Shown: in pieces, positions 13,065 through 21,188 of the stretch
Layout: each line of letters starts with the position of its first letter
How positions within the stretch are numbered: the first letter of the stretch is position 1
Origin: a virus
DNA: 22,350 nt
Strand: one strand, 5' to 3'
UHGV virus genome: UHGV-0185671
The notes under the pieces: model-generated
The model's database searches: none
The model's input: the letters and a program-made list of their open reading frames with translations, nothing else
What the model was told of the DNA's origin: nothing
Program-made: the position numbers and the translations under genes

Positions 13065-13613
13065 TTAGTGTAATCTCTGATCGTCTGAATCTTGTAAGAA
13101 CTCCATGAGACTTTGAACCGGAATTGGTTCTATTGATGATAATGTGAACACAGGAATATTGAGACTTTTGCAACGCTCAAACACTCCCTTATCATGAGTC
13201 CATACCTCGTCAGCATTAATTGCTCTTGCAATTGCTATTATTTGTCTGTCAAACTTAATTTTGTTTGCTGTACCTTCTGTGCTAATTTTCCTTAATTCTT
13301 TTAATGTTGGTATCGATGCGCATTCAATAGCAGCCAACTCATCAAATGATACAGTCTCGAAGCATGATAACGATTTGATAACATTCAGTTTTTCTTGTTG
13401 GTAATCTTTATGGATTCCAACTAAAAACTCCGCCAATACAGGAGTTGGAACGATGATTGTCCCGTTCTTGTTATCTATCCGATCAACAAGAGCTTCTGCT
13501 CTTCTTTTGGCATCTGGAATCTCAGAACCAAGTATAGGGTCAGATAATCTATAATCGTGTTCTATATCTGATAGTAGGTATACCAGAATATTGGTATCTA
13601 AAATTACTCGCAA
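13065..13613 (-). CDS. PIN-domain nuclease (VapC-like toxin/effector), 182 aa
   Basis: N-terminal MRVILDTNILVYLL beta-strand with Asp6, then Glu62 (VLAEF), Asp122 (FDRQIIAIARA) and Asp141 (WTHDKG), the canonical four-acidic PIN arrangement. TTG start at 13611-13613 with a GAGGA RBS 7 nt upstream; start overlaps the stop of the upstream gene by 10 nt. Confidence 0.75.
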   Translation of the reverse strand: MRVILDTNILVYLLSDIEHDYRLSDPILGSEIPDAKRRAEALVDRIDNKNGTIIVPTPVLAEFLVGIHKDYQQEKLNVIKSLSCFETVSFDELAAIECASIPTLKELRKISTEGTANKIKFDRQIIAIARAINADEVWTHDKGVFERCKSLNIPVFTLSSIEPIPVQSLMEFLQDSDDQRLH

Positions 13614-14323
13614 TTTATCTTCCTCAGAGTCCTAAGGATTGAATCAACATCGCGTTCCTCGGACCACTGATCTCCAGGAACTTGCTTGATAGCATTAATA
13701 GCATCCTTGAGTGATGATTTTTTGAGCAATGCAAATGAAGTTATTTTTAGTTTCTTTAGCTCCCATTTGTTGTTCTTTTTTTCCCAGCACCCATCTCCTT
13801 TAACCCTAATATATTTGAATAGATGGGACCCAAGAGCTGCTGCCAAATCAGGGGTTGCCTCGCACTTGAATGTTTCACCGTTGACTCCCTCAATACGCAC
13901 AGGTATTGAGTTGTCTTTTCCGCCAACACTGTATAGCCTTCCTTGAACTTCTGACGTTTTTGTTATGAGTAAAGGGATTGGCTCCTTTTTTACTCGCGGG
14001 AATGCGATAATGGTTGAGTGGTTTCGTCCGAGTAGTTTCGCTGAAAAACCATCATGTTCCAGTAAATTAACAATTTTTTGATACGCAGGTGATTTCTCTT
14101 TGGCTGAGAGAGAGGCCCTTGCTATGACAGCGTTATAACAAATATCATTATCGACCCATGCATTTAAGTCAGCCGATCCTTCACTTACACAGTCGAAGTG
14201 AACAGAATCTGCAGAACCGTATAGATCTACGAGAGCAGACATATACTTGACCAACTTAGCCATTGACAGCTGGCTAGGGGTGGTTCCGTCAAGTTTTAAT
14301 GTGAGTCCATTGCTTTTTTTCAT
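13604..14323 (-). CDS. Uncharacterised protein partnered with PIN nuclease (candidate sensor/antitoxin), 239 aa
   Basis: ATG at 14321-14323 (minus); long uninterrupted ORF; stop overlaps the PIN start, suggesting translational coupling; no recognisable DNA-binding or catalytic motif by eye; AT-rich relative to flanking virion genes. Confidence 0.65.
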   Translation of the reverse strand: MKKSNGLTLKLDGTTPSQLSMAKLVKYMSALVDLYGSADSVHFDCVSEGSADLNAWVDNDICYNAVIARASLSAKEKSPAYQKIVNLLEHDGFSAKLLGRNHSTIIAFPRVKKEPIPLLITKTSEVQGRLYSVGGKDNSIPVRIEGVNGETFKCEATPDLAAALGSHLFKYIRVKGDGCWEKKNNKWELKKLKITSFALLKKSSLKDAINAIKQVPGDQWSEERDVDSILRTLRKINCE

Positions 14324-14372: not shown

Positions 14373-14627
14373 CTATAACTTACTTTTGCTATAAATATTT
14401 TTCAGCGTTTCAAAGACCATCTTCTTAACAACGTCAGATTGCTCATCCGCGACTCGCTCAGCTTCGTCTCGATAGCCTACAATTGATGATGGCTTTGAGA
14501 GAGCATCCTGAACGATTTGTAATAACTCAGAGTTCATTGACCTTCCGTTAGCCTCTGCTCTTAATTTCAATTTTTCTCTTACTTCCAAAGGCATACGGAA
14601 GTTAAAGTGCGGATCGTCTCTAGCCAT
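14373..14627 (-). CDS. mnt: Mnt repressor (ribbon-helix-helix), 84 aa
   Basis: Translation MARDDPHFNFRMPLEVREKLKLRAEANGRSMNSELLQIVQDALSKPS... closely matches P22 Mnt as recalled; ATG at 14625-14627 (minus). The longer ORF-track call (to 14918) is an upstream extension across the promoter region. Confidence 0.9.
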   Translation of the reverse strand: MARDDPHFNFRMPLEVREKLKLRAEANGRSMNSELLQIVQDALSKPSSIVGYRDEAERVADEQSDVVKKMVFETLKNIYSKSKL

Positions 14628-14649
14628 GCCATCACCCCAAGTTAGTGTA

Positions 14650-14701
14650 TTGACATGATAGAAGCACTCTACTATATTCTCAATAGGTCCACGGTGGACC
14701 C
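14650..14701 (+). promoter_or_regulatory. immI control region: Pant promoter (-35 TTGACA 14650-14655), Arc operator (ATGATAGAAGCACTCTACTAT, 14655-14675), Mnt operator palindrome (GGTCCACGGTGGACC, 14686-14700); divergent Pmnt overlaps
   Basis: Sequences seen directly; they match the P22 Arc operator and the symmetric Mnt operator described in the literature on P22 immI. Confidence 0.85.
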
Positions 14702-14717
14702 ATGTTGTGAGGTGAAT

Positions 14718-14876
14718 ATGAAAGGAATGAGCAAAATGCCGCAGTTCAATTTGCGGTGGCCTAAAGAAGTATTGGATTTGGTGCGCAAGGTAGCTGAAGA
14801 GAACGGGCGATCTGTTAACTCTGAGATTTACAAGCGAGTGATGGACAGCCTGAAGAGAGAGGGGATAACGGTATGA
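14718..14876 (+). CDS. arc: Arc repressor (ribbon-helix-helix), 52 aa
   Basis: Translation MKGMSKMPQFNLRWPKEVLDLVRKVAEENGRSVNSEIYKRVM... near-identical to P22 Arc as recalled; GAGGTGA RBS upstream of ATG 14718. Confidence 0.92.
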   Translation: MKGMSKMPQFNLRWPKEVLDLVRKVAEENGRSVNSEIYKRVMDSLKREGITV

Positions 14877-15097
14877 AGGTATCTTATATAGATTGCGACT
14901 TCTGTCATGCATCCACATTGACAGATAAAGAAGCTGTTATGTTCACTAATATTGACAGGAAAGCTATTGGTTATCGAGAAGTCCACATCTGTAATAAGTG
15001 CATTGTTGATGCTTGGGAAGCACTAAACGGTAAAGATAAGAATTTTTATCTCAGAGCAACTGTAGAAGGTAGGCACTTTAAAGAAGTGAAAAGTTGA
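14873..15097 (+). CDS. Hypothetical Cys4 zinc-ribbon protein, 74 aa (insertion between arc and ant)
   Basis: ATG overlaps arc stop (ATGA at 14873-14876); two CxxC pairs (CDFC and CNKC) about 29 residues apart; markedly AT-rich compared with arc and ant. Confidence 0.55.
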   Translation: MKVSYIDCDFCHASTLTDKEAVMFTNIDRKAIGYREVHICNKCIVDAWEALNGKDKNFYLRATVEGRHFKEVKS

Positions 15098-15159
15098 AGC
15101 CCCAACTGCGGTAACAGTCAGGGCTTCGGTTGTCAGTAAATCTTTGGAGAAAAACCAAC

Positions 15160-16062
15160 ATGAATAGTATAGCAATTTTAGAAGCAGTGAACACCTCTTA
15201 CGTACCATTCAACGGTCATCAAATTATCACCGCCATGGCTGCCGGAATTGCATATGTTGCGATGAAGCCAATCGTTGAAAACCTTGGAATGAGCTGGTCA
15301 ACGCAGCAAACAAAACTCATGAAGCAGATTAGCAAATTCAACTGTGTTCATATGAACATGGTTGCCGCTGATGGGAAGCTTCGTAAGCTACTCTGCCTTC
15401 CTTTGAAGAAGTTAAATGGATGGCTGTTCAGCATCAACCCTGAGAAAGTTCGTGCTGACATCCGCGATAAACTGATTCAGTACCAGGAAGAATGCTTTAC
15501 TGTGCTGCATGACTACTGGACAAAGGGAGAGGCAGCAAATGCACGTAAGAAAACATCTGTTGATGACAGGACTCCGCTTCGTGATGCTGTAAATATGTTA
15601 GTCAGCAAAAAGCATCTAATGTACCCAGAAGCTTATGCAATGATTCATCAGCATTTCAATGTGGAAAGTATTGAAGAGCTTGATGCATCTCAGATACCGC
15701 TAGCCGTAGAGTACATCCACAGGGTAGTGCTTGAAGGTGAGTTCATTGGCAAACAAGAGAAGAAAGCAAACGAGCTTTCTGCAAAAGAAGCAAACAGCCT
15801 TGTATGGTTATGGGATTATGCCAACCGTTCACAGGCATTATTCCGCGAACTGTATCCGGCGCTAAAACAAATTCAATCGAACTATTCCGGCAGATGCTAC
15901 GACTACGGTCATGAGTTCTCGTATGTTATCGGAATGGCGAGAGACGTTTTAATCAATCACACACGAGATGTTGATATCAATGAGCCAGACGGACCAACGA
16001 ATCTTTCCGCATGGATGAGACTGAAGAATAAAGAATTACCTCCTTCAGTACATAACTACTGA
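15160..16062 (+). CDS. ant: Antirepressor Ant, 300 aa
   Basis: Translation from ATG 15160 ([29 protein letters not shown]...) matches P22 Ant N-terminus as recalled; GGAG RBS upstream; the ORF-track TTG start at 15130 is rejected. Confidence 0.88.
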
Positions 16063-16081
16063 CAGATAACCAACGCAACGA

Positions 16082-16104
16082 CCCAGCTTCGGCTGGGTTT
16101 TTTT
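16082..16104 (+). terminator. Intrinsic terminator downstream of ant
   Basis: CCCAGC-TTCG-GCTGGG stem-loop (16082-16097) followed by TTTTTTT (16098-16104). Confidence 0.75.
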
Positions 16105-19082: not shown

Positions 19083-19859
19083 ATGGTTATGAAATTGTAT
19101 TCTGAAAGCTCAGATGAAAAAGATGCATTATATCTGCTTTCTTATATCAATGATGTTATTTTGCCTGCTTCAGTCGATTTTTTTGAAAAACTAGAAGATA
19201 ATTCCTTGAGATTGCATCACGTTTTTTCATTTAATGCAATTCTTGCTCATGCGACAGATTATATAGTTTATATCGTTAACAAAAAAAACAGCATAAAAAG
19301 GATTGATTTCCTGAAAGGTTTTGATGAAAGATACTCTGTAGATGGTTGTTGTTTTATTAATAATAAATTTGAACTTTTAGATGCTGTGAATAATTCCTTT
19401 AAGCATGTTGAGTTAAAAAAGGAACGATATCCTGAACTGATAAAAAGATATGGCGATCTATCATTCCATTGCTTGAAAGAAGATTCTGGAAAAGTTTTTT
19501 TTAGAACGTCTGGATATCAATTTGATTATTCTAGAGTGGTTCTAAGACCAATTGCTAAAATATTCGATTGTGGACTCAAAGATAATAATGATGTTGATGA
19601 TTTTATAAACGGAAGAATATTTGGGAGTTGTGGTTATGGACATTTTCTATATGACTATGAACCATATGATTCAATTGATAGAATGATAGACTACTGTAAC
19701 GCACAATGTATGGATTGTGGTGAGTATGCGGATGACTGCGATTGTCATAATTATGAATACAATAAAGAAAAAGGCAAATATAATCCTGACTTAGATCCTA
19801 ACTTCGATTTTGATGATGTTATGTCAAATATTAGTGGCACAAGGGAATGGAGTAAGTAA
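19083..19859 (+). CDS. Hypothetical Asp/Cys-rich protein, 258 aa (AT-rich cargo)
   Basis: Long ORF in a very AT-rich block with an AT-rich upstream region; C-terminus has clustered Cys/His/Asp (CGYGHF...CNAQCMDCGEYADDCDCH), suggesting metal binding; no family recognised. Confidence 0.55.
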   Translation: MVMKLYSESSDEKDALYLLSYINDVILPASVDFFEKLEDNSLRLHHVFSFNAILAHATDYIVYIVNKKNSIKRIDFLKGFDERYSVDGCCFINNKFELLDAVNNSFKHVELKKERYPELIKRYGDLSFHCLKEDSGKVFFRTSGYQFDYSRVVLRPIAKIFDCGLKDNNDVDDFINGRIFGSCGYGHFLYDYEPYDSIDRMIDYCNAQCMDCGEYADDCDCHNYEYNKEKGKYNPDLDPNFDFDDVMSNISGTREWSK

Positions 19860-20369: not shown

Positions 20370-21188
20370 ATGACTAAACATATTATGCACCCCGACCATG
20401 TCGCTGAGATTTGCAGCCAAATCAAAAAATCAAACAACAGAGATTTTATCTATGATAGCTTTCGCCAATTGCTAAGCCAGTTGCCGATGGGATTTCATGA
20501 TGTAACCGCCACGACTGTATGGCGATCGAGGAAAACTGATGTGGCCCACCAGGAAGGGTTCGATCATGTTACCGATATTATTTATCCACCTGCGCAGTAT
20601 GCCAAAACCGGAAGGCTAAATACGGATGGGGTGTCTATTTTATACGCATCTATCAGCAATCATGGATGCCTGGCAGAAATAGGAGCCCAGCCGGGGGATA
20701 AAGTGCATGTGTCCGCATTCACCCTGAAACCAGAGCAGAGACTGCATTGCGGCTTTTTTGGCGATATTGTTAGGGCACATAAATGGAGTAGCGAAGATTT
20801 TACACAGGTACAAAAAATCCTTGAGCCGTATACGGAAGCGCAAAAAACCAGTATTTTCATGATAGACAGTTTCCTTGCTGAAACACTTGCTGATAGCCGA
20901 GCGAAGGAAAACCATTACCTGCATACCACAACACTTGCTGATGTCATCCGCAATGGGAAAAATGCGTTGGATGCTATCGTTTATCCTGGAGTGGAGTCCT
21001 CCGGCGCCAAGAACTATGCAATCCACTGCGACGCAATGATTAAATTCAATATTGCAGATATGTACCTGCTAGAGATAACCAAAAAGCATCCCTACGGGCT
21101 GTATGAATGGCGGATACTTAAGCAATTAGAAAGCTATGATGATGGCCGAATTATCTGGAAAGAGCCATGCTGTGCGAATGTTGCATGA
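20370..21188 (+). CDS. Probable RES-domain protein (toxin-like NAD-targeting family), 272 aa
   Basis: Motif GRLNTDGVSILYASISNHGCLAEI (Arg82 ... Glu103) resembles the conserved Arg/Glu core of RES domains, with a later Ser-containing segment (YPGVESSG); recognised by eye only. Confidence 0.5.
   Translation: MTKHIMHPDHVAEICSQIKKSNNRDFIYDSFRQLLSQLPMGFHDVTATTVWRSRKTDVAHQEGFDHVTDIIYPPAQYAKTGRLNTDGVSILYASISNHGCLAEIGAQPGDKVHVSAFTLKPEQRLHCGFFGDIVRAHKWSSEDFTQVQKILEPYTEAQKTSIFMIDSFLAETLADSRAKENHYLHTTTLADVIRNGKNALDAIVYPGVESSGAKNYAIHCDAMIKFNIADMYLLEITKKHPYGLYEWRILKQLESYDDGRIIWKEPCCANVA

Follow-up and report, generated by a model that had tools for sequence, protein, structure and literature searches.

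Genes and control elements at the locus

The analysed DNA, a stretch of 22,350 nucleotides from the UHGV virus genome UHGV-0185671 (the window), encodes all the parts of a P22-type immI region, i.e. mnt, arc, ant, sar and the divergent Pant/Pmnt promoters. In textbooks, the immI of P22 stands as a model of regulation by Arc, Mnt, Ant and sar, and it is usually drawn with two cistrons. The mnt repressor gene of the window (84 aa) lies on the minus strand at 14373..14627 and was recognized through the Pfam families Arc (E 5.7e-27) and Repressor_Mnt (E 4.8e-13). The divergent Pant/Pmnt promoter-operator region at 14650..14683 has promoter-like sites on the plus strand (TTGACA-17-TATATT, 11/12) and on the minus strand (10/12), and is identical to the annotated P22 region. 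The plus strand then carries the arc repressor gene (14718..14876, 52 aa, identified by Pfam Arc with E 1.7e-27 and by alignment to P22), an ORF with four cysteines in a zinc-finger arrangement that we call orf74 (14873..15097), and the antirepressor gene ant (15160..16062, 300 aa, P22_AR_N E 3e-44 and P22_AR_C E 3e-29), whose RBS GGAG is at 15146-15149. A terminator scan found an intrinsic terminator 3' of ant (16080..16099, plus strand), where epsilon34 also has an annotated terminator, and the tailspike gene runs from 16163.

The sar antisense RNA gene occupies 15092..15159 on the minus strand, as indicated by Rfam RF00262 (94.5 bits, 68/68 positions) and by the epsilon34 annotation. Its promoter Psar was placed by position at 15166..15194 (minus strand), transferred from the epsilon34 annotation via a near-identical alignment, and a simple consensus promoter scan gave no match for it. 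The earlier sequence-only reading of this DNA had pointed out a stem between the stop codon of orf74 and the ant RBS. The stem is present at 15096..15127, with the arms GAAGCCCC...GGGCTTC, but it is not a feature of the insert, and its interpretation as a novel element is rejected: it is the canonical sar terminator, positions 33-64 of the Rfam sar model, and is base-for-base the same as in P22. Psar and the region of the ant RBS are also conserved in comparison with P22 and epsilon34, and hence the control of ant by sar looks intact and unrelated to the insert.

Two minus-strand signals in this part of the window were set aside. The program-made ORF list contains a 181-aa ORF at 14373-14918, in which mnt is prolonged through Pant and arc into the beginning of orf74. 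This results artificially from the use of the first in-frame start, and the real mnt is its 84-aa C-terminal part according to Pfam. A promoter-like site inside orf74 (14908..14881, 9/12) was also rejected, as such sites are fewer in the region than expected from shuffled sequences.

A third cistron between arc and ant

All the parts of the P22 and epsilon34 module, i.e. mnt, Pant/Pmnt, arc, sar, Psar and ant, are present in the window at 92-95% DNA identity. Alignment to either phage reveals ~212 extra bases in the window between arc and ant, with the left breakpoint in the last arc codons and the right one at AAAGTTGAAGCCCC. A megablast search with positions 14600-15250 against 50,697 phage records matched 52 P22-like records, none of which covers the middle of the query. 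The window thus has a third cistron, the 225-nt orf74, between arc and the sar hairpin, whereas in P22 arc leads straight into the sar/ant intercistronic region. The two forms of Arc differ at the C-terminus, which reads ...DSLKREGITV in the window and ...SFKKEGRIGA in P22, and arc of the window stops by overlap with the start of the next gene while arc of P22 has its own TAA.

The coordinates given by the sequence-only reading for a 74-aa ORF with two CxxC pairs, coupled to arc by an ATGA overlap and located 5' of ant, are confirmed, as is its view of the ORF as an extra gene relative to the canonical P22 immI. The ATG start of orf74 overlaps the arc stop codon (14873-14876), and a Shine-Dalgarno sequence GAGGGG lies within arc, 8 nt 5' of this ATG. 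The four Cys codons are at 14894-96, 14903-05, 14990-92 and 14999-15001 (C8xxC11 ... C40xxC43). At its other end orf74 shares its last 6 nt with the 3' end of sar, and its stop codon TGA (15095-15097) provides the first two bases of the sar hairpin stem. The distance to ant, which is in another reading frame, is 62 nt. With 36.0% GC orf74 is lower than arc (46.5%) and ant (43.2%), but to call it much more AT-rich is too strong, since 10% of all the 225-nt windows along the stretch (mean 45.9% +/- 6.6) have a GC content as low or lower.

We collected homologues of orf74 and found that their length is constant at 74-75 aa, with a stop codon in all of them. In 11 sequences with 42-84% identity to the protein of the window, all four Cys are invariant, and so are D9, F10, S14, T15, N26, I39, R67, F69 and K73; the conservation of the Cys residues proposed as a check on the initial idea is therefore observed down to 42% identity. 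The dN/dS ratio of orf74 is 0.116-0.156 at dS 0.72-0.85. These data indicate that orf74 is almost certainly a genuine protein-coding gene. One could instead regard it as an ORF that arose by chance, a gene in decay, or sequence retained only as a spacer or as the N-terminal portion of ant, as its copies are annotated only as hypothetical, the gene is absent from all the 50,697 phage records (tblastn, no match at E<=1) and one copy, P0007, is frameshifted. Such a non-functional origin is very improbable given the purifying selection, the ligands and core residues kept invariant across saturated synonymous divergence, the constant length, and a frame and stop codon separate from those of ant. 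The idea of an N-terminal extension of ant, which had been named as a possible refutation, is rejected for the same locus on its own grounds: orf74 has a different frame and its own stop, and Ant is complete with its full 300 aa and both the P22_AR_N and P22_AR_C domains.

Distribution of orf74

We found orf74 in 23 of 5426 complete E. coli genomes, 700 of which match this immI stretch, and its annotation in these genomes is always hypothetical. The family is very small: a set of 5.8 billion proteins contains 15 clusters of it at 90% identity, a set of 1.84 billion contains five representatives, and the named sources are Escherichia, Salmonella and Citrobacter only. Every examined locus has the same order, i.e. 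arc, a 4-nt overlap, an ORF of 74-75 aa, ~63 nt and ant, and lies inside a P22-like late region. Overall, only a minority of the P22-like prophages have an arc-orf74-ant operon, with orf74 as the cistron in the middle. A pattern scan of genome contigs for orf74 gave no match. Neither did searches of NCBIfam and of PADLOC, a library of defence systems and not of counter-defence, and PHROGs gave chance-level matches only. In the literature we found no paper on orf74 or its accession.

Several copies start with GTG and overlap the arc stop by GTGA (L006:3935-4159, P0005, P0006, P0014, P0021 and P0025). Public records call the GTG-start copies 52-aa proteins beginning at Met23, by which the first CxxC pair is lost; the Salmonella copies have such a GTG start and are mis-called as 52 aa in this way. 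The same orf74 as in the window is present in a prophage of E. coli Ecol_AZ146 (L001), where a frameshifted ISEc52 transposase at L001:66-1235 breaks the region upstream of the ejection-protein genes, and hence this prophage copy may be defective.

The arc-ant junction as a polymorphic slot

A search with the alternative Arc type seen 5' of some orf74 copies brought up other small genes at the same place. Altogether four unrelated ORFs of 57, 73, 74 and 89 aa occupy the arc-ant junction in different P22-like phages and prophages. Among the 5426 complete E. coli genomes the counts are 93 for orf57, 51 for orf73, 23 for orf74 and 14 for orf89, so that at least 181 genomes hold one of the four cargos at this junction. 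The loci of the other cargos are L027:1650-1823, L028:1623-1844, L029:1050-1319 and L030:1050-1319. orf73 (phrog_11805) is found in the phages Emek and vB_EcoP-611R6, orf57 (phrog_17642) in the phage phiv205-1, and orf89, for which a transmembrane helix and a coiled coil are predicted, in EC.P3 and S.Kent 1-2-1. These three share with orf74 the position, both flanking linkers, the start and stop geometry and a GC content of 36-40%, but they have no sequence similarity to orf74 or to each other and no Cys4 motif. orf57 and orf73 have PHROG entries and are present in sequenced phages; orf74 is missing from both collections.

The left linker is the 3' end of arc (14845..14876 in the window, plus strand), with the Shine-Dalgarno sequence at 14859-14864 and the ATGA at 14873-14876. 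Common to the four cargos is ...GACAGCCTGAAGAGAGAGGGG.T..CGGT followed by (A/G)TGA, which encodes the Arc C-terminus ...DSLKREG... and includes the Shine-Dalgarno sequence; this C-terminus is common to every locus with an occupied slot. The right linker, TGA followed by AGCCCCAACTGC...CAGGGCTTCGG, is the sar hairpin. In P22 and epsilon34 the slot is empty, and arc ends with ...RIGA-TAA, 6 nt before the TGA of the right linker. The junction is thus very likely a polymorphic cargo slot between two conserved linkers, and a literature search found no description of a slot between arc and sar. The word inserted, used for orf74 in the sequence-only reading, is therefore only half right: the gene is extra in comparison with P22, while P22 could be either an insertion-free ancestor or a deletion.

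The last codons of all the four cargos are AAA-xxx-TGA (15078-15097 in the window, with equivalents in L027-L029), and on the opposite strand these bases also serve the sar terminator, as its U-tract and the beginning of its stem. Since the AAA matches the U-tract, the invariance of K73 reflects a constraint on the linker DNA and is not evidence about the protein. The antisense RNA gene thus dictates the C-terminal Lys of four unrelated cargo proteins. Mosaic exchange at the slot can be seen directly by comparing L002 with L011, whose arc DNA is nearly identical while their orf74 DNA is heavily diverged inside conserved flanks, with saturated synonymous sites; the encoded proteins are 81% (L002) and 47% (L011) identical to that of the window.

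Fold and family of the orf74 protein

The Pfam family zf-C4_ClpX (PF06689), i.e. the N-domain of ClpX, is the only family matched by all eight of the eight tested members, every score being below the threshold; the protein of the window has 18.9 bits (E 0.0015) against a gathering threshold of 27 bits. Using hhalign, we aligned the family profile to residues 1-60 of E. coli ClpX with a probability of 93% and a score of 37.3, and C8, C11, C40 and C43 of orf74 were paired with C15, C18, C37 and C40 of ClpX. Two hundred shuffles of ClpX with the ligand Cys fixed scored 13.2 +/- 3.0 with a maximum of 26.7, and the scores of the other sequences used as controls (YacG, rubredoxin, L31, Ogr, the TraR of the F plasmid and P1 Icd) were 8.5-15.5. 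The similarity to ClpX therefore goes further than the Cys ligands.

In an AlphaFold2 model based on an 8-sequence alignment the pLDDT is 74-86 over residues 1-50 and drops under 50 over residues 56-74; we describe the protein as a finger of about residues 1-55 with a low-confidence tail of ~19 residues. In this medium-confidence model a knuckle is followed by a beta-hairpin (23-28/35-40) and a helix (41-52) that starts from the second CxxC. The earlier description of a Cys4 zinc ribbon holds for the four cysteines but probably not for the ribbon: in the model the second CxxC sits on the N-terminus of helix 41-52 and not on a beta-hairpin knuckle, which speaks for a ClpX-N-like treble clef. 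Our analysis suggests that orf74 is probably a free-standing remote homologue of the ClpX N-domain with a treble-clef-like fold. As in that domain (PDB 2DS5-2DS8), the four Cys form two CxxC pairs. The differences are that orf74 is only 74 aa in total and lacks the AAA+ module, that a 10-residue hairpin insertion brings the CxxC pairs to 28 residues apart in comparison with 18 in ClpX, and that it has the extra tail.

The best match of the model in BFVD, a weak one, is A0A8S5SHE7 (E 0.016), a phage protein of 63 aa whose name refers to a Clp ATP-binding subunit, and another weak match is A0A9E7CCK4 (65 aa, E 0.32). The names of the two are 'ATP-dependent Clp protease ATP-binding subunit' or 'Clp protease', and they look like further free-standing phage proteins similar to the ClpX N-domain. 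Searches of the PDB sequences by phmmer and hmmsearch gave chance matches only (endothelin, TCR alpha chains), and Foldseek found no PDB match under E 1.4.

Other known fingers were considered and rejected. The TraR/DksA C4 finger (CxxC-x17-CxxC) had no Pfam match and an hhalign probability of 0.3% against TraR of the F plasmid, and similarity to the Ogr, YacG, rubredoxin and L31 fingers was rejected by hhalign. Homology to Icd of P1 was rejected too, with an hhalign probability of 0.1%. The arrangement in P1/P7 (c4-icd-ant) is analogous in position only: Icd (73 aa) has nearly the same length and is encoded directly 5' of an antirepressor gene, and its immunity operon is under antisense-RNA control. 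However, Icd lacks the Cys4 motif. Its gene shares 4 nt with ant1 and, according to the P1 annotation, is apparently needed for ant to be expressed, while orf74 overlaps the upstream arc and is separated from ant by the 62-nt gap with the sar target.

Small Cys4 proteins encoded in the regulatory regions of phages often bind DNA or RNA, and orf74 ends inside the sar hairpin, so one may think of a nucleic-acid-binding zinc finger that regulates Pant, sar or the translation of ant in cis or in trans. We consider this improbable. The finger core is acidic to neutral (pI 4.8-7.7 in 9/11 members), which argues against nucleic-acid binding, and there is no similarity to the Ogr, TraR/DksA or YacG types. 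The unrelated cargos end at the same sar hairpin, hence that geometry is a property of the slot and not of orf74. The ClpX ZBD is not known to bind nucleic acids.

A possible ClpX docking-domain mimic

The N-domain of ClpX is a dimeric docking site for the adaptors SspB, RssB and trigger factor (TF), and for substrates including lambda-O, MuA, UmuD', FtsZ and the antitoxin MqsA (PMC8808172, PMC7804408). Residues L12, L13 and F17 line the pocket for SspB, MqsA, TF and lambda-O, and these interactions are weakened by the changes L12S, L13A/D and H23A, and by mutations at F16/I46, the last two positions being counted from the residue after the initiator Met (PMC8808172, PMC7804408); F17 is numbered as F16 in PMC7804408 for this reason. 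In our alignment L12, L13 and F17 of ClpX correspond to Y5, I/L6 and F10 of orf74. Among the members F10 never varies, Y5 hardly does, and position 6 holds either Ile or Leu throughout. This conservation of the pocket residues suggests that orf74 has retained the ligand class.

From its position in the operon we infer that orf74 would be transcribed from Pant like arc and ant. It would then be made in a brief burst after infection until Arc represses Pant, and possibly again from late read-through transcripts; late read-through transcription has been described for the P22 ant moron (PMC2629481). Its output would be tied to the translation of arc through the overlap, and sar would still target the ant RBS only. 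The protein may act through protein-protein binding, imitating the ClpX docking domain in soluble form and capturing the adaptors or degrons that otherwise dock on ClpX (SspB/RssB-type tails, or signals of the lambda-O/MuA/UmuD'/MqsA type). Ligands diverted in this way from ClpXP would change its choice of substrates and leave some phage or host protein stabilised early in infection. The pocket residues, the acidic to neutral core and an allele distribution that does not follow Ant or Arc make a docking-domain mimic, i.e. a ClpXP decoy, the best-supported mechanism, though we propose it only tentatively. For the explanation as a whole (gene, slot, ClpX-like fold and decoy) we estimate a probability of roughly 0.35, the mechanistic step being the limiting one. 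The C-terminal F69-K-E-V72 of orf74 resembles the ZBD-binding consensus LKxh (PMC7226468), and is only a weak lead since the AAA codon and the following bases belong to the linker common to all the cargos.

Two other readings are close rivals of the decoy. The protein could be a partner in the immunity circuit, with Ant, the C2-type repressor, Arc or Mnt as its ligand, and adjust anti-repression through e.g. the stability, titration or timing of Ant. The strict linkage of orf74 to arc and ant in every locus would fit such a role, as would a stoichiometry tied to Arc by translational coupling, and in ClpX the N-domain fold serves for protein binding and dimerisation (PMC8808172). We nevertheless regard it as rather unlikely. 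One orf74 allele type is found with Ant proteins of differing N-domains (P22_AR_N or KilA-N), with an Ant that has no P22_AR_C match, and with two Arc types, and this independence of the allele from the Ant N-domain and the Arc type argues against a dedicated partner of Ant or Arc. Moreover, three unrelated proteins replace orf74 at the junction, and most immI regions, that of P22 included, work with an empty slot.

In the second rival reading, orf74 is an accessory, moron-like factor for anti-defence or host takeover with a target other than ClpXP, and the ClpX-like fold is merely a scaffold. The slot is polymorphic, with four unrelated AT-rich cargos swapped between conserved linkers, the alleles of orf74 are deeply diverged, its presumed transcription from Pant would take place within minutes of infection, and the surrounding 'ant moron' is hypervariable (PMC2629481). 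Against this, the pocket residues common to ClpX and orf74 are conserved, and there is no match in PADLOC or the other libraries, a weak point in the case of PADLOC because of its scope. We judge this second reading possible but doubtful.

The decoy, if true, would add a novel means to those by which phages interfere with host proteolysis; e.g. labile antitoxins or a phage replication or immunity protein could be spared degradation in the first minutes. The protein would also be a compact tool from nature with which ClpXP degradation that depends on the N-domain could be blocked. We speculate, with considerable reserve, that P22-like phages exchange small early-burst effector genes via this slot, whose linkers contribute the start and stop of translation and the sar terminator, and that orf74 may be the first phage-encoded soluble decoy of the ClpX docking domain.

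Other genes near immI

The 'ant moron' of the window also contains, between the gene-16 homologue and mnt, a PIN-domain ORF (PF01850, E 4e-10) at 13065-13613 on the minus strand, which overlaps by 10 nt a 239-aa ORF at 13604-14323 on the same strand; the latter has no Pfam or PADLOC match. The pair is also present in the prophage L001 and may be a toxin-antitoxin or defence pair. On the 3' side of the tailspike gene we observed a 258-aa ORF without a family match and then a RES-domain ORF (PF08808, E 1e-8), at 19083-19859 and 20370-21188, both on the plus strand.
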